DNA from: Callorhinchus milii
Taxonomy: Eukaryota
Assembly (NCBI RefSeq): GCF_018977255.1
Contig: NW_024704742.1
Coordinates: 91,948,001 to 92,012,000, forward strand
Direction of reading: 5' to 3'
Length of the DNA stretch: 64,000 nucleotides
Part shown: positions 2,961-58,769 of the stretch, one piece after another
Position numbering within the stretch: the first letter of the stretch is position 1
Layout: each line of letters starts with the position of its first letter
The notes under the pieces: model-generated
The model's database searches: none
What the model was told of the DNA's origin: nothing
Seen by the model: the letters and a program-made list of their open reading frames with translations, nothing else
Program-made: the position numbers and the translations under genes

Positions 2961-3040
2961 CTTTGTGATCATAACTACTACAAATTTTTCCTCATCTATT
3001 TTATACTCTATAATTGGCGTCTCATCGTCAAGGATCTTCC
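2961..3040 (-). CDS. RAD23B: RAD23B coding exon 3 (end of UBL domain)
   Basis: ttttag|(G)KILDDETPIIEYKIDEEKFVVVMITK|gtgggt. 80 nt, phase-compatible with exons 2 and 4. Confidence 0.95.
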
Positions 3041-5586: not shown

Positions 5587-5668
5587 CTGCATATATCAAT
5601 TTTTGGCCAGCCACTGGGAATGCATCTTTTCCCTTTTCAGTTTCGATCTTCTCCTTCAACGCTTTCAC
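5587..5668 (-). CDS. RAD23B: RAD23B coding exon 2 (UBL domain)
   Basis: tttag|[28 protein letters not shown]|gtatta. 82 nt, nearly identical to vertebrate RAD23. Confidence 0.96.
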
Positions 5669-6332
5669 CTAAACAAAATGATACACACTTAACTCTAGAT
5701 TTACAAGGTGAGAGCAATTTTCACCTTTCTTTTATTCTAGTACTCAAAAATAAGCACTCAAATTTAGATTTTGAATAGAAAAATCAATGGTTATATATTC
5801 TAATTCATAATATTCATAAATGAGATAACAGCACCTGAAATTGTAAATCTATAACAAAAATCATCTTAAATTAAAGACTTTCTATAACCTGCCTGGCATC
5901 AACTAAAAGTTCTCATTCTTCGTAGTATTATAAAACAAGGAATGGTCAGGACTTTAATCTTATACTGCATTAGAGTCAAACATTGGTATGATAAAACTAA
6001 TGTATCAATAGTTGATCACATCGATAGAATTAGAAAACAAACTATGAATGACAATTAGTAAAACTAGTTATGTAGTTATGTAAATATGGAGAAGGAGGCG
6101 ACTGACATCTTAACTGTGTTTTTTGGAGGGGAAAGAGAAGGAAAAGATGCATACATCAAGGAAATGGGCATCTCAGTGCTGACAATATGAAGACTGGAAC
6201 ACTTTCCTTTTAATACAGTTGGAAGTAGTAGGTAAACAGGTTCCCTCATCCAGATATTGGGACGTCGATTAGTATGCTGAAAGTAAAGTACACCTGCAGC
6301 TGAGCTCTCATTTACACTTTGTTGTGCATTTT

Positions 6333-8765
6333 ACAGAATCATAGAATTATACAACACAGAAAGAGGCCATTCAGCCCATCGTGTCTGTGCCGGCTCTTTG
6401 AAAAGAGCTATCCAAATCAATCCCATTCCCCGCTTTCTTCCCATAGCCCTGCAAACTTGTCCTCCTCAAATAATTATCTACTTCTCTCTTAAAAGTTGTT
6501 ATCGAATTGGCTTCCACCACCCTTTCAGGCAATGCATTCCAGATCCGAACAACTCGCTGTGTGAAAAAATTTCTCCTCACCTCCCCTCTGTTTCTTTTAA
6601 CAACTATTTTAAATCAGTGCCCTCAGGTTACCGACCCACCCACCAGTGGAAACAGTTTCTCCTTGTTCACCCTATCGAATCCCCTCATAATTTTGAAAAC
6701 TTCTATTAAGTCTCATCTTCACCTTCTTTGCCCCAAGGAGAATAATCCTAGTGTCTCCAGCCTCTCCTGATAGCTGAAGTCCCTCATTCCTGGTACCATC
6801 CTGGTAAATCTCCTTTGCACCCTTTCCAATGCCTTGACATTCCTAAAGTGTGGGGCCCACAACTGAACACAGTACTTTAGCTGACCCCGAACCAATGTTT
6901 TATAAAGGTTCATCATAACTTCCTGACTTTTGTATTCTATGCCCCTATTTATAAAGCCTAGTATCCCGTATGCTTTTTTAACAGCTTTATCTACCGTCCT
7001 GCCACCTTCAAAGATTTACTTACATGAACCCCCGGGTCTCTCCGTTCCTTCACCTCCTTTAAGATTCCATCATCCAGCTTATATTGCCTCTCCTCATTCT
7101 TTCTCCCAAAATATTAATAATAATCCTTGCATTTGATATAGCGCTTTTCACGTCGGGAGGACGTCCCAAAGCGCTTCACTGTAAAGTGAATTGACTGTAT
7201 ATTTGTGGGCGAACGCGGCAGCCAATTGCGCACAGCAATGTCCCACGGTCATGGATTGAAAATGACCAATTTATTATTGGTTTTTTTTTAGCGCTATTAT
7301 ACTTCACTTTGGATTTCTCCACATTAAACTTCATCTGCCACATGTCTGCCCATTTTACCAGTTTGTCTATGTCTGTTTGCAGTCTGCTACTATCCTCCTC
7401 ACTGTTTATATTTTTCCTAGCTTAGTATCATCTGCCAACTTGGAAATTGTACTCCTGATACCCAAGTCCAGGTCATTTATATAGATCAAAAACAGCAGTG
7501 GTCCCAATACTGATCCTTGGGGGACACCACTGCACAGGTTCACCACTACTCTCTGCTTTCTGTCTTCCAGCCAGTTCTGTATCCATGCTGCCACTGTCCC
7601 TTTAATACCGTCGGCTTCTATTTTGCTTACAATTATCTTATGTGGCACTTTATCAAACACCTTTTGAAAATCCATATAAATTACATCAACTGCACTACCT
7701 TCATCCACCCTCTCCGTTACTTCATCAAAAACTATCAGGTTTGTTAGACACGATTTGCCTTTAACAAATCCATGTTGGCTGTACCAATTTTTCTAAGTGA
7801 AAATTTATTTTGTCCCAGATTATAGTCTCTAGAAGTTTCCCCATTACTGACGTTAGGCTGACTGGCCTGTAGTTCCAAGGTTTATCCTTCTGTCCCTTTT
7901 TGTACAGGAACATAACATTTGTAACCCTCCAGTCCTCTGGCACCACCCCAGTGTCCAAGGAGGATTGAAAGATTGTGGCCAACATCTCCGTTATTTCCAC
8001 CCTTACTTCCCTCAGTAACCTAGGACCTATCCCGTCCGGACTGGGTGACTTATCTACCTTGAGCACCGTCAATCTTTTTAGTACCTCCACTTGGTTTATT
8101 CTTATCATCCAATTTCTCTACCCTCTCCTCCGATACTGTAGCATTGGCTGCATCCTCATCTTTTGTGAAGACAGATGCAAAGTACTCATTCAGTACATCA
8201 GCCATGCCCTCTGCCTCCACAAGATGATTTCCTTTTTGGTCCCCAATTGGACACACCCTACCTTTGAGCAACCTTTCATTCTTTATATGCTTAATATGCT
8301 AAAATACCTTAGGGTTCCTTTTTATGTTACCCGCTAATCTTTTCTCGTACAATCGCCTTGCCCCTCTTGTTTCCTTTTTCAGTTCTCCTCTGTATTTTCT
8401 GTATTCTATTTGATTATCTTCTGTATTTTGGGACTGACATTTATCACAAGCCTCCTTTTTCTGTTTTAATCCCAATTTCCTTAGTCATCCAGGGAGGTTT
8501 AGATGCCCTAACTTTCCCTTTTGTGGGAATGTATTTGTTCTGTCCCTGAATTATCTCATTCTTGAAGGCTTCCCACTGTTTGTTAGCTGTTTACCTGCCA
8601 ATCTGTCTTTCCAGTCCACCTTGGCTAGGTCCCTTTTTAACTCACTGAAATTAGCCCTCTTCCAGTTGAGTATCTTCACCTTCGATTGCTCCTTAGCCCT
8701 TTCCATAAGTATTCTAAACCTGATGATGTTGTGATCACAGTTGTCCTGATGCTCTCCTGGACCCA
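6333..8765 (-). mobile_element. CR1 LINE, 5'-truncated and decayed, in RAD23B intron 1
   Basis: Frameshifted ORF2 pieces: [70 protein letters not shown]. Ends in a CR1 3' hairpin and ATTCTATG-type tail. Confidence 0.93.
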
Positions 8766-8952
8766 TTTAGTGCATCCACTTAGCTACCTGTCTCTGCTAT
8801 CTCACTGCCTCCACCCACACCTCCTTACACACCTTTGACTTTATCTTTCAGACATTCTGCCCCATTCCGTGTTTCGCGTCTATGTACACACAGGGTATTA
8901 TCTTCAGCACACGGCTACATGTTTACAGGGGCTGTGTGTGTGTTGCACTCAC

Positions 8953-9018
8953 CGGGAGCTCGGGCTCAATCTGGATGTGGAAGGATTGCTGTTGCAGAGT
9001 CTTCACTGTGATCCTCAT
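8953..9018 (-). CDS. RAD23B: RAD23 homolog B, coding exon 1 (start of ubiquitin-like domain)
   Basis: The minus strand reads GGCGAC-ATG then MRITVKTLQQQSFHIQIEPELP, followed by donor GTGAGT. The 66-nt, phase-0 exon matches the RAD23 N-terminus (MQVTLKTLQQQTFKIDIDPEET). Paralog B is assigned from adjacency to ZNF462. Confidence 0.9.
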
Positions 9019-9344
9019 GTCGCCTCCGCTCCCGGCCTCTCACTTGGGTCACTGAGGCATCCGCTGGTTATTCACTATAAACAGTCAGCAATGGTTAATG
9101 AGTTATAACTGATTAGTTAGTCACTTACACCAGGCTTACGCTGACCAATGAGTTATTGCTGGTTAGACACTTAGAGCGAGTCACCAAGTGAAAACAGCAC
9201 TAATAGCAGTCAGTAAGTTTAGTTGTTTAATGTAACAATAATACTTGCATTTGATATAGCGCTTTTCACCTTTTCTAGACGTCTCAAAGCGCTTCACAGG
9301 ACATACCGTACAGCGAATTAACTGTATAACTGTTGAAAGCCGAT

Positions 9345-12300
9345 TAACGCTGGTTACCATGTGAGCGCTCTGGTACCCGGGTGAGTTACTGGGTGAGTGC
9401 TGGTTAGTGCTGGTTACTAGGTGAGCAATGATTACCAAGTGAGAGCAACTGGGTATGAGCCTTCAGCAGCGACCATTGTCTGGATGAGGGTTAGTTACTG
9501 GGTAACACTCGTTGCTGGCTGAGTGCTGGTTGCCTGGTGAGTTCTAGTAATCGGTTGAGTGCTGGTTACCTGGTGAGCCCTGGTGACTGGTTGAGCGCTG
9601 GTTACCTGGTGAGACCTAGTGACTGGCTGAGTGCTGGTTACCTGGTGAGTCTGGTGACTGGTTGAGCGCTGGTTACCTGGTGAGCCCTGGTGACTGGTTG
9701 AGCGCTGGTTACCTGGTGAGACCTAGTGACTGGCTGAGTGCTGGTTACCTGGTGAGTTCTAGTAATCGGTTGAGCGCTGGTTACCTGGTGAGCCCTGGTG
9801 ACTGGTTGAGCGCTGGTTACCTGGTGAGCCCTGGTGACTGGTTGAGCGCTGGTTACCTGGTGAGCCCTAGTGACTGTTTGAGCGCTGGTTACCTGGTGAG
9901 CCCTAGTGACTGGTTGAGCGCTGGTTACCTGGTGAGCCCTGGTGACTGGTTGAGCGCTGGTTACCTGGTGAGTCCTAGTGACCGATTGAGCGCTGGTTAG
10001 CTGGTGAGCCCTAGTGACCAGTTGAGCGCTGGTTACCTGGTGAACTCTGTTGACTGGTTGAGCGCTGGTTACCTGGTGAGTTCTAGTAATCGGTTGAGCG
10101 CTGGTTACCTGGTGAGCCCTGGTGACTGGTTGAGCGCTAGTTACCTGGTGAGCCCAAGTGACCGGCTGAGCGCTGATTACCTGGTGAGCTCTGGTGACTG
10201 GTTGAGCGCTGGTTACCTGGTGAGCCCGAGTGACCGGTTGAGCGCTGGTTACCTGGTGAGCCCTAGTGACTGAATGAGCGCTGGTTACCTGGTGAGCCCT
10301 AGTGACTGGTTGAGCGCTGGTTACCTGGTGAGCCCTAGTGACTGGTTGAGCCCCGGTTACCTGGTGAGCCCGAGTGACTGGTTGAGCGCTGGTTACCTGG
10401 TGAGCCCAAGTGACCGGTTGAGCGCTGGTTACCTGGTGAGCCCTGGTGACTGATTGAGCGCTAGTTACCTGGTGAGCCGAAGTGACCGGCTGAGCGCTGG
10501 TTACCTGGTGAGCTCTGGTGACTGGTTGAGCGCTGGTTACCTGGTGAGCCCTAGTGACTGGTTGAGCGCTGGTTACCTGGTGAACCCTAGTGACAGGTTG
10601 AGAGCTGGCTACATGGTGACCCCTAGTGACTGGTTGAGCGCTGGTTACCTGGTGAGCCCTAGTGACTTTTTGAGCGCTGGTTACCTGGTGAGCCCTAGTG
10701 ACCGGTTGAGCGCTGGTTACCTGGTGAGCCCTAGTGACCGGCTGAGCGCTGGATACCTGGTGATCCCTAGTGACCAGTTGAGCGCTGGTTACCTGGTGAG
10801 CCCTGGTGACCGGTTGAGCACTGGTTACCTGGTGTGCCCTAGTGACCGGTTGAGCGCTGGTTACCTGGTGAGCCCCAGTGACTGGTTGAGTGCTGGTTAC
10901 CTGGTGAGCCCTAGTGACTGGTTGAGCGCTGGTTACCTGGTGAGCCCTAGTGACTGGTTGGGCGCTGGTTACCTGGTGAGCCCTAGTGACTGATTGAGCG
11001 CTGGTTACCTGGTGAGCCCTAGTGACTGGTTGAGCGCTGGTTACCTGGTGAGCCCTAGTGACTGGTTGAGCGCTGGTTACCTGGTGAGCCCTAGTGACTG
11101 GTTGAGCGCTGGTTACCTGGTGAGCCCTAGTGACTGGTTCAGCGCTGGTGACTGGTTGAGCACTGGTTACCTGGTGAGCCCCAGTGACTGGTTGAGCGCT
11201 GTTTACCTGGTGAGCCCCAGTGACTGGCTGAGCGCTGGTTACCTGGTGAGCCCCAGTGACTGGTTGAGCGCCGGTGACTGGTTGAGCGCTGGTTACCTGG
11301 TGAGCCCCAGTGACTGGTTGAGCGCTGGTTACCTGGTGAGCCCCAGTGACTGGTTGAGCGCCGGTGACTGGTTGAGCGCTGGTTACCTGGTGAGCCCCAG
11401 TGACTGGCTGAGCGCTGGTTACCTGGTGAGCCCCAGTGACTGGTTGAGCGCCGGTGACTGGTTGAGCGCTGCTTACCTGGTGAGCCCCAGTGACTGGTTG
11501 AGCGCTGGTTACCTGGTGAGCGCTGGTGACTGGTTGAGTGCTGATTACCTGGTGAGCGCCGGTGACTGGTTGAGCGCTGGTTACCTGGTGAGCCCCAGTG
11601 ACTGGTTGAGCGCTGGTTACCTGGTGAGCCCGAGTGACTGATTGAGCGCTGGTTACCTGGTGAGCCCAAGTGACTGGTTGAGCGCTGGTTACCTGGTGAG
11701 CCCTAGTGACTGGTTGAGCGCTGGTTACCCTGTGAGCCCTAGTGACTGATTGAGCGCTGGTTACCTGGTGAGCCCCAGTGACTGGTTGAGCGCTGGTTAC
11801 CTGGTGAGCCCCAGTGACTGATTGAGCGCTGGTTACCTGGTGAGCCCCAGTGACTGGTTGAGCGCTGGTTACCTGGTGAGCCCTAGTGACTGATGAGCGC
11901 TGGTTACCTGGTGAGCCCTAGTGACTGGTTGAGCGCTGGTTACCTGGTGAGCCCTAGTGACCGGTTGAGCGCTGGTTACCTGGTGAGCCCCAGTGACTGG
12001 TTGAGCGCTGGTTACCTGGTGAGCCCTAGTGACCGGTTGAGCGCTGGTTACCTGGTGAGCCTCAGTGACTGGTTGAGCGCTGGTTACCTGGTGAGCCCTA
12101 GTGACTGGTTGAGCGCTGGTTACCTGGTGAGCCCAGTGACTGATTGAGCGCTGGTTACCTGGTGAGCGCTGGTGACTGGTTGAGCGCTGGTTACCTGGTG
12201 AGCGCTGGTGACTGGTTGAGCGCTGGTTACCTGGTGAGCCCTAGTGACTGGTTGAGCGCTGGTTACCTGGTGAGCCCCAGTGACTGGTTGAGCGCTGGTT

Positions 12301-14612
12301 ACCTGGTGAGCCCCAGTGACTGGTTGAGCGCTGGTTACCTGGTGAGCACTGGTGACTGGTTGAGTGCTGGTTACCTGGTGAGCCCCAGTGACTGATTGAG
12401 CGCTGGTTACCTGGTGAGCCCCAGTGACTGGTTGAGCGCTGGTTACCTGGTGAGCCCCAGTGACTGGTTGAGCGCTGGTTACCTGGTGAGCCCCAGTGAC
12501 TGGTTGAGCGCTGGTTACCTGGTGAGCGCTGGTGACTGGTTGAGCGCTGGTTACCTGGTGAGCCCCAGTGACTGGTTGAGCGCTGGTTACCTGGTGAGCG
12601 CTGGTGACTGGTTGAGCGCTGGTTACCTGGTGAGCGCTGGTGACTGGTTGAGCGCTGGTTACCTGGTGAGCCCCAGTGACTGGTTGAGCGCTGGTGACTG
12701 GTGAGCCCCAGTGACTGATTGAGCCGCTGGTTACCTGGTGAGCCTCAGTGACTGGTTGAGCGCTGGTTACCTGGTGAGCCCTAGTGACTGGTTGAGCGCT
12801 GGTTACCTGGTGAGCCCTAGTGACTGGTTGAGCGCTGGTTACCTGGTGAGCGCTGGTGACTGGTTGAGCGCTGGTTACCTGGTGAGCGCTGGTGACTGGT
12901 TGAGCGCTGGTTACCTGGTGAGCGCTGGTGACTGGTTGAGCGCTGGTTACCTGGTGAGCCCCAGTGACTGGTTGAGCGCTGGTTACCTGGTGAGCGCTGG
13001 TGACTGGTTGAGCGCTGGTTACCTGGTGAGCGCTGGTGACTGGTTGAGCGCTGGTTACCTGGTGAGCCCTAGTGACTGGTTGAGCGCTGGTTACCTGGTG
13101 AGCCCTAGTGACTGGTTGAGCGCTGGTTACCTGGTGAGCGCTGGTGACTGGTTGAGCGCTGGTTACCTGGTGAGCGCTGGTGACTGGTTGAGCGCTGGTT
13201 ACCTGGTGAGCCCCAGTGACTGGTTGAGCGCTGGTTACCTGGTGAGCCCGAGTGACTGATTGAGCGCTGGTTACCTGGTGAGCCCAAGTGACTGGTTGAG
13301 CGCTGGTTACCTGGTGAGCCCTAGTGACTGGTTGAGCGCTGGTTACCCTGTGAGCCCTAGTGACTGATTGAGCGCTGGTTACCTGGTGAGCCCAGTGACT
13401 GGTTGAGCGCTGGTTACCTGGTGAGCCCCAGTGACTGATTGAGCGCTGGTTACCTGGTGAGCCCCAGTGACTGGTTGAGCGCTGGTTACCTGGTGAGCCC
13501 TAATGACTGGTGAGCGCTGGTTACCTGGTGAGCCCTAGTGACTGGTTGAGCGCTGGTTACCTGGTGAGCCCTAGTGACTGGTTGAGCGCTGGTTACCTGG
13601 TGAGCCCAGTGACTGGTTGAGCGCTGGTTACCTGGTGAGCCCTAGTGACCGGTTGAGCGCTGGTTACCTGGTGAGCCCCAGTGACTGGTTGAGCGCTGGT
13701 TACCTGGTGAGCCCTAGTGACTGGTTGAGCGCTGGTTACCTGGTGAGCCCCAGTGACTGATTGAGCGCTGGTTACCTGGTGAGCGCTGGTGACTGGTTGA
13801 GCGCTGGTTACCTGGTGAGCGCTGGTGACTGGTTGAGCGCTGGTTACCTGGTGAGCCCTAGTGACTGGTTGAGCGCTGGTTACCTGGTGAGCCCCAGTGA
13901 CTGGTTGAGCGCTGGTTACCTGGTGAGCCCCAGTGACTGGTTGAGCGCTGGTTACCTGGTGAGCACTGGTGACTGGTTGAGTGCTGGTTACCTGGTGAGC
14001 CCCAGTGACTGGTTGAGCGCTGGTTACCTGGTGAGCCCCAGTGACTGGTTGAGCGCTGGTTACCTGGTGAGCCCCAGTGACTGGTTGAGCGCTGGTTACC
14101 TGGTGAGCGCTGGTGACTGGTTGAGCGCTGGTTACCTGGTGAGCCCCAGTGACTGGTTGAGCGCTGGTTACCTGGTGAGCGCTGGTGACTGGTTGAGCGC
14201 TGGTTACCTGGTGAGCGCTGGTGACTGGTTGAGCGCTGGTTACCTGGTGAGCGCTGGTGACTGGTTGAGCGCTGGTTACCTGGTGAGCGCTGGTGACTGG
14301 TTGAGCGCTGGTTACCTGGTGAGCCCTAGTGACTGGTTGAGCGCTGGTTACCTGGTGAGCCCTAGTGACTGGTTGAGCGCTGGTTACCTGGTGAGCGCTG
14401 GTGACTGGTTGAGCGCTGGTTACCTGGTGAGCGCTGGTGACTGGTTGAGCGCTGGTTACCTGGTGAGCGCTGGTGACTGGTTGAGCGCTGGTTACCTGGT
14501 GAGCGCTGGTGACTGGTTGAGCGCTGGTTACCTGGTGAGCGCTGGTGACTGGTTGAGCGCTGGTTACCTGGTGAGCGCTGGTGACTGGTTGAGCGCTGGT
14601 TACCTGGTGAGC
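9345..14612. repeat. 36-bp minisatellite array, ~140 units, consensus GAGCGCTGGTTACCTGGTGAGC(CCYA/GCTG)GTGACTGGTT, built from two related 18-mers
   Basis: Directly visible. Regular from ~9520 to 14612, with degenerate copies at 9345-9520. Confidence 0.99.
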
Positions 14613-14619
14613 GGCCTGG

Positions 14620-15120
14620 TCGGTCGGTTGGTTGGTGTCTGCACCGAAGAAAACAAGTGGCTGCACATGCGCTGTGAGGCATCTCTCGAGCGGGCTGGTT
14701 GCGCATGCGCACGTGAGCGGAAACGGGTGGGGAGCGAGGTCGCGCTTGCGCATCAGCAGTAGTTTATTTCCGGTGCGGGGGGGGGAAGGGAGGTGACAAA
14801 TAGAGCGCGTGCGCACTGAGAGCGGCTGTCGGTGTGTTCAGCAGGTGACCGTTGTCGGGGCAGCAATGTGGCCGCATTGGGCGGGTTGACGCCCAATCGG
14901 GCGGGTTTTTACCCGCAGTGTGCGTGAAAAACTTCTTTGGGGGCGGATTTTCTTCGGGCGGTGTTTTTTTTTATTAAAAATTGAAACCCCGCAGCAACCG
15001 GTGTGGGTTTTTGTTTCTGCCCCATCACCTCCGCAGTTTCTAAGGCAATGAGCTCAGGCGGTCGCCCTGGTGTTCGGAGTGAGGCCCCGCGTGACCCTGG
15101 GCTGCTTTTGGGCTACTGTT
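14620..15120. promoter_or_regulatory. CpG-island housekeeping-type promoter, probably of RAD23B
   Basis: CpG-dense. Perfect NRF1 palindrome TGCGCATGCGCA at 14700-14711 overlaps E-box CACGTG at 14710-14715. Further NRF1-like sites at ~14663, 14742 and 14805, ETS-like TTTCCGG at ~14767, opposed CCAAT boxes at ~14876 and ~14893, and GGGCGG boxes. Confidence 0.8.
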
Positions 15121-17687
15121 TGGGCTACAGAACTATTTTCGTGTCTGGCGGACGGGGACGGTCACTACAGCAACAACAGCAACATTACCTTCACGTCGGG
15201 AGGACGTCCCGCGGCGCCGGACGCTCGGGGTTTTGGACCCGAGCTGGGGGTCGGGGTGGGGGTCGGGGTCGGGGAGGGTGGGGTCGGGGGGGGTGGGAGG
15301 TGATCGAAGGCAACGATCAAAGAGGAGGGTCTTGAGATGCGTCTCGAAGGCGAGAAGACCCTCCAGTTCTATGCTCCACAGCGTATCCCGTGAAACGCCG
15401 TCGACCTGTTTCCGCGACGTGATAAGCCGCGCTGTGTGTAAAAAGCAAAGGATTATTGTTATTATTACGACAACCACTTACATTTCTAGCGATCGCGCCC
15501 TTCATGCGGGGCAGCGTCTCGGAGCGTTTAATTGCCTTAGACGTGTCGGGGCAATGTTAGCCGTCGGATTTTGTTTGATCAGACTGTGTGACAACACGTC
15601 GCAAACACGTTTCATCGCAAGCGCTCAGAGACCTCATTCATTCTGTTTGAAGGGCGCTACATCTCAATGCAAGTTGTGCCTAAAAGTATTGGTTTGTGGC
15701 TTTCAAGTAGGTTATGTTTTTAAATTTAGACTAAAATACTGTAAGTGGTACTCACTTCCACTGGGTGTCTCGTTGCCTCAGGTCTGATCCTTCGAGATCT
15801 TATACGTGAACTACTTTGTAGCTACAATCTCATCGATTTCACGCCGCAATTCAATTTTTCCCCTTGATTTTAGCTTTGGCGAAATGCCCGTTTGGCTCAT
15901 CGGTAAGACTTGGAGATATAGACATGTTCTGAATCCTGCCAACCAAATCCCTAATGAGTAAGACAGTCGTAAATGGACAAATATTGTGCCGTGTATTAAC
16001 CACTACACAAATGGACAGTAATGAAAGAAGTGTCTTATCATGTTTGAAATGTCTCAAAAATGCTGTACAAGAAATTAGTGTTTGTTTTTATAGGCTCATC
16101 GGCCAAGCTTCCCTTCCAAATCACTGGCGCCTGGGTGTAGATATTGTGTGAGGACGGGCTGGTGCTTGGCTGTGATAATGCCAGTAGATGAACAACTTGC
16201 TCAGCGCACAAATGAAGAACAGATACTTGGAGAATGTTTGGAATCTGTAAATTTGTACGTTAGTTATTATCTCCAGAAGATGAGAAAAGGGAGAGCTCAC
16301 TGGGAATAGATCAATATACACCAACAAAACTGTTCATAGAGTAAAGCTGGATATTGCCAAAGTACTCAGTAATAATAATAATAAGTAAACTTAAAGTTGC
16401 TCTTTACTCTCCCCTTCCACTGATATTCTTTAATATATTTGGTGAAAATACGTTCTCGTATATCTTCACTGAAGCAGGTCTCTGTCTAGGCCAAATGATA
16501 TCTGGAGCGGAAGAGGGGAAGGGGGATGTTTCAAACTTGTTTTCAACAAAACAGTGTTTCCAGTCTGTGCTTTGAAACTGGACCACACATTCTGTTCACA
16601 GTCTGCTGGCAACAATTGTAGTTTCAAGCATGAAATGACCCTGGCTTACTTCGATGGGCAGAAAGGGCTGCCCATCCATAAACAGGCATTTTAATGTCAG
16701 ACATTCTTTTCAGTGCTCATTAATGTTTTGTATAACACCAATCAGAAATGACAGCCTTGATGCTAATGACCATTTAGGTGGTGTTCAGGTTGAATCACAC
16801 TTTCCAGTATATATGGCTTTAACACTGTAGTAAATAAAACCAACCTATATATAGTACTCCCACGACTATTTATTTATCTGTTTTTCTGAATCTGTAAGTG
16901 CTATCTAACCTTGCATGAACCATGATTTGTCCAGATATATAAAATTAGTGTACGTGTAAGTGTCATGCAACTGTGTTTGTGTCATGATTCACCAAGATTT
17001 GTAAACTTTGCAAATGATCTTCATTAAAAGAGAAAACATATCAAAACAAAATCAACAACTTGCATTTATATTGCGCCCTCCACATCAGTCGGCATTTCAG
17101 AGCGCTTAACAATGGGGAGTCCAAGGCCGAGCCGGGGAGGGGGAAGGTGACCGTAGGCGCGGTCAAAGAGGAAGGTCTTCAGGCGCGACCTGAAGATGGG
17201 GAAGGAGGGGGTGAGGTGAAGGGGTTGAGGGAGAGAAAATCAAAGCAGTACTGAAGCACTGTCGAACAATTCAAAAGTTTAGCCAAATATTTCCAAAATG
17301 TCAAATAAAAACTGAACGATGACTGCAGCATTACATTAGACAGAGAAATGCTTAAAACCAAACCAAAAAGTGGAGGGCTTGCAGAGAACATGAAATGAGT
17401 CACTTGAATTAGAGTATCATCTGGGTTCTCTGCATGTAGATAGAACATGATCTAAGGCAGGATGGCTCTGTCGCCTTTGCAGTGGAAGTGTTGGGTGGTC
17501 AGATTAGGTGTCAGCCTGGCTCAGTTGGTAACACTTTCACTTCTGAGTCAGAAGGGTATGGGTTCAAGCATCGTGCCACAACATTACAAGAGGGATGTTG
17601 AGCTCATTAGCGAGCTTGATGCTCCAATTTAGTGCTGGGGGAGCGCTGAATCAACAGAGGTGCTGGCTTTCGGCTTTGAACCAAGGT

Positions 17688-57200: not shown

Positions 57201-57529
57201 TTTTAAATCATCACCTTCTCATCCTTTCTCCATATCTCTTACTTAACAAGTACCTAGCCATCTCCCTTTAAAAACTCGTGAATCTATTCTGTAATTATAG
57301 CATTCTGGGGGCAAGATTTGTTTTTGTTTTTTAAACTGGCTTTATCTTTAAGCAGCTTAGCAACTTTTTTTCTTTAAAAAGATCATTCAAAACTGCCGAG
57401 AGCTGATGTCAGGGGTTGTCAGCCAGAGGGTACAGAACTGTATGTCCCACAACCACAAACTCAAATCTGGTTTGGCTTCACAAAGGATCTCATTTGCACT
57501 GATCAATCACTGCCCGGCGTTTCTCTTAC

Positions 57530-57791
57530 CTGAACCCAGTAAAAAACGAGCAATCCTTGCACTTGTGCAGCTTCTTCCCACAATGCCGGTCTCGATAGTG
57601 GCGCCTCATGCTTTGAATATATTCAGAGTTAAACTGACAGAATTCACAAGTGAAGTGCCCTTTGGTTACTTGTTCAGCTGGAGCAGCAGGTGATGGCACT
57701 GGCCCAGGGCTGGAGAGGTTCCTTGCCATGGCAGCTGTCTGGTAATGGTTAAGCTGTTGCTGGACGTCCGGTGGCTCCGAATAAGAAGAAT
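57530..57791 (-). CDS. ZNF462: ZNF462 coding exon (DSSYSEPPDVQQQLNHYQ...CEFCQFNSEYIQSMRRHYRDRH...CKDCSFFTGF)
   Basis: Contains the diagnostic ZNF462 motif SSYSEPPDVQQQLNHYQ. atgcag|...|gtaaga, 262 nt. Confidence 0.96.
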
Positions 57792-58769
57792 CTGCATGTG
57801 AAGAACTGTCAGTTACATGCCAACTAGATAAAACGTGAAGCTTTCTTTCACTGGAACAGCGTTTCTCTTTCCCACTAATCTGTGAATAACTATTTAAAAC
57901 TCTGAGGTTTAACTTGCTTTGTACAGTCATTGCTAGTTTTACTGTGGGCGTGCATGTGGACTTATCACCCTATTGTTTGTTGTAGGAAAATAGAAACTTA
58001 GAAATCTACAGCACAGAAGGAGGCCATTTGGCCCATCGAGTCTGCATCCGCTCACACAGCAAGATCAATTTAACCCCACTGCCCCACATTATCCTCATTC
58101 CCCTTCAAGCCCCTCTCTTTCATTTGTGGACTCTAAGAGTTAAATTGCCTCCTTCTGCTCTGTAGATTTCTACGTTGTAAAATAATAACAACTGTGTAAA
58201 GCAAGTCTATGCTTCTGCAAACGTGTCAAAGATTGATGGGAAAGCAAGAAGGCTTTACTGACAATGGCAGAATTTCTATTATAAACACTAGTGGGGGGAG
58301 GGAATAATAAACAAGAACAAATGAGGGTCGAACAACCAACTGGTGATTATGCTCCTTGGGGTTGGGGGGGATGTAAGCCGGGTCTTCTTGGAACTGAACT
58401 GGATCAGTGGCTTCTTTTTGTAGTCCAGTTCCTGAGCCAGGCGGGTCTGCAGTTTTCCAGGGCGCTGATGATGACAGCACAGCACAGCCTGGCTCATCAA
58501 CAGGACCTGGAAGGGCAGAGCAGTCACTGGGGACAGGGAATTATCCTACTCAGCTCCTGTTAACCCTGCAAGCCAAAGCTCTAACCGGTAGAGTGGTCCT
58601 TGCTGGACATTCAGCAGCAAGACTCACTGCACCTAAGCACACACTTTGTTAGTGTTCAAGCAGGAATTAACATTTCCCATCCATTTGGCAAATATCACAA
58701 ATTAGACCCAAACGTCTTCTCCGTTCATTTAATACATTAGGCTCTGGCAGCATCAACCTCCATGGTTGC

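Follow-up and report, generated by a model that had tools for sequence, protein, structure and literature searches.

Introduction

Several intronic minisatellites are known in which the 5′ splice site of an exon is repeated along the following intron. In the 37-bp VNTR (a tandem repeat variable in number) of intervening sequence 7 (IVS7) of human F7, the first monomer spans the exon-intron boundary and is followed by identical donors, of which only the most upstream one is seen to be used (Borensztajn et al. 2006, PMC1557585). In F7 minigenes the identical donors farther downstream can work, yet the most upstream one prevails over them, with up to 12 units and even when they are strengthened short of a perfect match (PMC1557585). 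Here we describe such an array in a RAD23B-like DNA-repair gene of the elephant shark Callorhinchus milii. The gene lies on the minus strand of the analysed stretch of 64,000 nucleotides, below called the window (NCBI RefSeq assembly GCF_018977255.1, contig NW_024704742.1, positions 91,948,001 to 92,012,000), and all coordinates are positions in it.

In IFI6 (6-16), CBS IVS13, LMNB2 and PDGF intron 4 a donor is likewise repeated in an intronic minisatellite, of 10-26 units; the first donor alone is used in LMNB2 and PDGF, as in F7, while IFI6 and CBS use two further donors too (PMC1557585). The 25-bp VNTR of ABCA7 intron 18 is a kilobase array of ~12-427 units with a canonical first donor; retention of one unit is seen there, and the following exon is skipped in a manner that depends on array length (De Roeck et al. 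2018, PMC5954066). The ‘mirage’ minisatellites of amphioxus (Adh3 and the globins BflGb6/9) are tandem copies of exon-intron boundaries that leave splicing undisturbed; their boundary units escape homogenisation, and they have been proposed as a route to new introns (PMC3087553). On the features tested, the elephant shark array belongs to this already known class of exon-intron-boundary minisatellites (F7 IVS7 type, or mirage). Our literature search, working on excerpts, returned no published account of the array itself, as distinct from its class, and the excerpts of PMC10078293 hold nothing on boundary-spanning repeats.

The donor of the first exon is repeated along the intron

Upstream of the ATG exon the window carries a 36-nt minisatellite (9515-14612, minus strand; period 36, 141.8 copies and 92% matches by Tandem Repeats Finder). 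The copies run head-to-tail and the unit size lies inside the 10-100 bp range of the class. The unit consists of two related 18-mers, alike at 14 of 18 positions, and a 27-nt unit pattern is matched 134 times at ≤3 mismatches, against 0 matches in 100 shuffles. The first unit starts at 14612, about 9 nt inside the first exon, and holds the authentic 5′ splice site CAG/GTAACC (14598-14606, minus strand; the slash marks the junction), with 14604 as the last exonic base and the GT at 14603-14602.

A preliminary description, made from the letters alone, had found CAG/GTAACC in each unit in the direction of the gene and CTG/GTGAGC in each unit on the plus strand. The array and both motifs are real, but ‘each’ is too strong: between 8901 and 14720, exact CAGGTAACC occurs 127 times on the minus strand and exact CTGGTGAGC 127 times on the plus strand, over ~139-142 units. 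Downstream of the first donor there are 126 exact copies of its 9-mer. Both motifs are indeed near the donor consensus MAG/GTRAGT, agreeing with it at 7 of 9 positions. Their U1 duplex energies, −8.0 (minus strand) and −8.1 kcal/mol (plus strand), are in the range of the four coding-exon donors of the same gene (−7.2 to −10.5 kcal/mol). Of the 3079 minus-strand GT sites that lie outside the array, 59 are as good, which is about one per kb, and a site as good occurs in 0.9% of 3000 shuffled units. The plus-strand motif needs no separate explanation, because the donor core is a near-palindrome (TCACC-A-GGTAA; by eye, 8 of its 11 positions are self-complementary).

At its far end the array passes into a decayed tail (9341-9514, minus strand), in which array-type 6-mers number 22, compared with 1.6 on average in the background; none of 658 background tiles reaches this count. 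Repeat or decayed repeat thus extends over 9341-14603, most of the intron. The units are most uniform at the promoter end, and mismatches per unit rise from 0.05 there to 1.33 at the far end. A block of 39 units recurs 44 units on and scores 11, where the unit order shuffled 200 times gives 5 at most. The two copies of this higher-order duplication (14612-13247 and 13031-11629) lie ~1.6 kb apart and have rare variants and a 1-nt deletion in common. The internal block duplication points to repeat turnover inside the array. Together with the divergence gradient from the promoter end, it makes the array look like the product of ordinary tandem-repeat turnover.

The first donor is joined to the acceptor before the ATG exon

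A run search with a downstream exon-intron-exon stretch gave ten runs guessed to be RNA, which contain its exonic share (0.71 of its words), and four others containing 1.00. No run containing the stretch is on record as RNA, and the RNA status is a guess backed by exon-exon junctions. Four of the ten runs (X2, X6, X9 and X10) were examined over 8700-9510, a region that excludes the array itself; the data are assembled contigs, which drop rare forms, and X9 and X10 are two samples of one study. In all four the ATG exon is spliced to the exon at 5668, where the loose letters equal window 5635-5664; hence each of them holds spliced RNA.

In X9 and X10 one unbroken contig runs over 8949-9076, at depths of 267.8 and 132.6, and continues past 9076 for 59 and 89 letters, respectively. 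The 30 overhang letters shown equal window 14606-14635, exactly in X10 and with a difference in a short ACCA/ACCG run in X9. This 30-mer occurs once in the window. The contigs join 14604 to 9074, the first donor to the acceptor at 9075. The junction removes 5,529 nt, the whole array included, in two of the four runs, and defines a GT-AG intron in the 5′ untranslated region (UTR) at 9075-14603 (minus strand). Preceding it is a non-coding first exon (14604-14694, minus strand), whose 5′ end lies at or beyond ~14694 if the unshown contig letters follow the genome. The acceptor region (9075-9104, minus strand) is T-rich and ends in TTTATAG, with the AG at 9076-9075. The exon begins at 9074, and the ATG follows 56 nt on, at 9018. 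These contigs bear out part of what had been proposed from the letters: the donor junction is at 14604/14603, the candidate acceptor 56 nt before the ATG is used, RNA joining the first donor to 9074 was found where the preliminary description advised looking for it, and the donor of a non-coding first exon is the one that has been tandemly amplified.

The depth in the bin 9064-9091 (124.3 in X9 and 61.6 in X10) is equal to that of the first-donor contig alone, so no other contig is present at 9064-9076 in these two runs. Internal donors have just 6-10 exon-side letters in common with the first one and would yield distinct loose ends. Of 41 other 30-letter ends expected from them, 0 were seen among the 18 of 38 loose ends shown. 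At the next donor, that of the ATG exon, an unspliced branch is kept at 1.8% and 6.8% of the exon depth. In the contigs of this one study the most upstream donor dominates in the mRNA.

Separately, the X9 and X10 contigs differ from the window at 9025 (T>A, plus strand), and the X9 difference in the ACCA/ACCG run lies at the end of exon 1 (14613-14635); each is either an allele or an assembly error.

Proposed mechanism and alternative explanations

We consider it probable that we are dealing with a minisatellite of the intron, its first unit reaching across the end of non-coding exon 1, that the first donor is used and the array removed, and that the other donors are bystanders. We suggest that a short segment of exon end and intron start was duplicated and then grew by ordinary tandem-repeat turnover. 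The donor sequences do not tell the first copy from the others: 82 of 127 are identical to it from −9 to +23, and when the comparison is extended to +27, 25 of 127 still are. RNA structure was considered as the reason for its choice and ruled out, the predicted accessibility of the first donor ranking 61 of 127. With so many donors sharing this context, and with an unremarkable predicted accessibility of the first, position is what sets it apart. Cap-dependent U1 recruitment would favour the first donor of a first exon likewise. Hence, we suggest that the first donor wins neither by its own sequence nor by RNA fold but by being most upstream and nearest to the cap, as in human F7 IVS7. The remaining copies would lose by position, and the array would be tolerated, without a selected function, since it is spliced out. 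Donors 2-3 may be used to a slight extent, in the way known from IFI6, CBS and ABCA7.

Some points weigh against this account. No unspliced branch is kept at the first donor, thus the sensitivity of the contigs for paths into the array is uncertain. Just two of the four runs are informative, and both come from one study with a guessed RNA status; X6 and X2 end at 9024 and give no evidence either way, and 9092-9203, uncovered in all four runs, gives none either. The loss of rare forms from contigs adds to this, with 20 of the 38 loose ends and 1689 pieces outside those shown. The neutrality of the array is presumed, from a single C. milii haplotype.

The preliminary description had expected donor choice along the array to yield 5′ UTRs that form a ladder with 36-nt steps. 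The 126 identical downstream donors of normal strength speak for it, as does the use of near-proximal pseudo-donors in IFI6, CBS and ABCA7. Each step would add 12 codons to one upstream open reading frame (computed lengths 34, 46, 58 ... aa for donors 1, 2, 3) and leave the RAD23B protein unaltered. What we see is a single, unbroken first-donor contig in X9 and in X10, with all the depth at 9064-9076, and we regard a substantial ladder as improbable. We find it about equally hard to believe that the array is retained beside the promoter as a dense landing pad for the U1 small nuclear ribonucleoprotein, raising transcription or guarding against premature cleavage. U1 acts both in transcription and in protection from premature cleavage, and the 127 donor 9-mers in sense direction start ~100 nt from the inferred start site. 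Against it, each donor position from −3 to +6 shows 0-3 variants in the 126 units of full length, many non-donor positions show 0, and the unit variation gives no sign of selection on the donor, a weak test in which the variants share descent and are not independent. Stepwise (recursive) removal of the array, each CAG/GT serving as acceptor and then as donor, would give the same final mRNA, with the same junctions as removal in one step; AG/GT is present in every unit and splicing there would restore the same donor. However, the array CAGs (four units counted) have only 2-3 T in the 20 upstream bases, against 9-12 in four true acceptors (9 in −24 to −5 of the acceptor at 9075 and 10-12 in the other acceptors of the gene). 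They thus lack the polypyrimidine tract of recursive splice sites, another AG lies just 8-15 nt upstream of them, and we rate this route as very unlikely.

The minus strand of the array also reads as a mucin-like repeat protein, (AHQVTSAQPVTR)n, with open stretches of 414, 459 and 759 codons. We rejected a coding role, which appears extremely unlikely. The array is spliced out of the RNA, and 1-nt indels interrupt the frame; one of them is common to both copies of the duplicated block and is therefore not a sequencing error. Moreover, 8000 candidates of 204-650 aa included no relative at E≤0.001. A search of 1.84 billion representatives gave 541 matches, and the best 150 of these are repeat proteins of 17-57% identity. 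The six C. milii cluster members are 306-378 aa long, and the Pfam matches of the repeat frame are below cut-off and compositional. In the antifreeze glycoprotein gene of notothenioids a short intron-exon junction segment was amplified and became coding. This gene had been named as a precedent, which does not fit because the array here is intronic and spliced out: the antifreeze repeat is kept in the mRNA and translated, whereas here the frame is broken and close protein relatives are absent from the searches above. The fitting analogue is the F7 IVS7 type (PMC1557585).

The repeat might also have made the intron itself. In such a history, which we hold to be possible but doubtful, the repeat expanded inside an ancestral first exon that carried UTR and ATG, its first unit became the donor, and its decayed end supplied or neighboured the acceptor, as in the ‘mirage’ or tandem-duplication model of intron gain (PMC3087553, PMC3443670). 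This is compatible with use of the first donor. The donor does arise from a duplicated AG/GT unit, and the repeat, together with its decayed part, makes up most of the intron. The unit 9-mer TAACCAGCG stands 4 nt past the acceptor, in the ATG exon (9070-9062, minus strand; 6 of 1732 background tiles have a match as long), and eight array 6-mers are found in 9019-9229 (8 of 542 background tiles are as high). In human RAD23B the ATG is in exon 1, at the CpG island. On the other side, the sequence near the acceptor resembles the unit only weakly, and the likeness was singled out post hoc: of 510 background tiles, 9, 33 and 3 reach the scores of the local alignments, and for the intron end alone (9075-9229) 82 of 738 tiles are as high. 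The acceptor itself, TAG/TGAA in T-rich sequence, lacks the CAG/G of the unit and lies 440 nt beyond the regular array. The excerpts returned by the literature search contain no RAD23B 5′ structure. If this history were true, a new non-coding exon would have been split off and the ATG moved 5.5 kb from the CpG island, and intron gain by the ‘mirage’ route would have an example among vertebrates.

The RAD23B-like gene and neighbouring features

The coding exons of the gene occupy 9018-8953, 5668-5587, 3040-2961 and 2872-2643 on the minus strand. The second exon (8953-9074) holds 56 nt of UTR, the ATG and the first 22 RAD23B-like codons, as located by tblastn of P0001, the C. milii RAD23 homolog B-like protein. 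By sequence comparison, the exons at 5587-5668 and 2961-3040 encode parts of a ubiquitin-like domain, and the 76 aa of the exon at 2643-2872 are 100% identical to P0001. Among the best 120 of 2600 matches of P0001, those that name a paralogue are RAD23B of bony vertebrates. These best hits, which are not a tree, suggest that the gene is the RAD23B orthologue. P0001 is only ~56-63% identical over full length to its best matches (best 120; 8000 candidates scored), and the named entries among these 120 include no other cartilaginous-fish protein. Judged by such comparisons, the C. milii protein may be unusually diverged.

A CpG island, probably the promoter, borders the array at 14613-15650 (CpG observed/expected 0.93-1.44, GC 0.50-0.63). 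Between 14701 and 14956 it contains NRF1-like, ETS-like, E-box, CCAAT and GC-box motifs, and none of these promoter-type motifs occurs at 8950-9515, around the ATG exon. The island reaches ~1 kb away from the RAD23B-like gene (14700-15650) and might also fire on the plus strand. The spliced 5′ UTR would contain three upstream ATGs, at 14682, 14668 and 9060 (minus strand), opening frames of 34, 23 and 3 codons; all three end before the main ATG, given a transcript start at or beyond 14694.

Between the acceptor and the array, the intron contains a piece of an interspersed repeat (9230-9335, minus strand), of which the window has 12 further copies, 72-88% identical, and which shows a very high multi-copy depth; it is putatively like the tail of a short or long interspersed element (SINE/LINE). 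The intron after the ATG exon contains a decayed LINE-like element (6290-8790, minus strand), presumably of the CR1 class, with a reverse-transcriptase-like frame at 7406-7792. Farther off, a zinc-finger frame (57529-57966, minus strand) gives ZNF462-type Pfam matches below cut-off (E 3e-4 and 0.028). ZNF462 presumably lies upstream of RAD23B in human. We rejected the frame as support from synteny, its Pfam matches being below cut-off and its Atlas clusters only generic C2H2 ones.

Discussion

The likeness to human F7 IVS7 extends to the position of the first monomer, to the spacing of identical donors (~36-37 nt), to the use seen of the most upstream one only, and to the failure of RNA structure to account for that choice (PMC1557585). 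The loci differ in size, with ~142 units here and 5-9 in F7, and in place, as the array here fills most of a first intron in the 5′ UTR of a cartilaginous fish gene and that of F7 lies in an internal coding intron (PMC1557585). Unlike in IFI6 and CBS, no further donors are seen in use here, at the sensitivity of contigs (PMC1557585). The ABCA7 VNTR shares with our array the kilobase length and the canonical first donor; however, its unit starts at the donor GT, with no exon bases in the first copy, whereas the unit here includes the exon end, and neither the one-unit retention nor the exon skipping of ABCA7 is seen here (PMC5954066). Since ABCA7 reaches ~427 units (PMC5954066), the array described here is large for its kind but no record. 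As in the amphioxus mirages, the boundary copies leave splicing undisturbed, here in a vertebrate and with far more copies than the 3-6 units of BflGb6 (PMC3087553).

We note that the locus provides a known rule with a large example from nature: 127 identical donors stand in a row, and the first is the one used in the mRNA seen. Many of the copies are alike in sequence and predicted fold, so that the array lends itself to tests of cap-proximal or first-come donor choice. It extends the F7-type positional preference to the first, non-coding exon of a cartilaginous fish. The finding would matter more if relatives of C. milii point to the repeat as the origin of the intron, or if arrays seeded by splice sites prove, in a genome-wide count, to be enriched in chimaeras.

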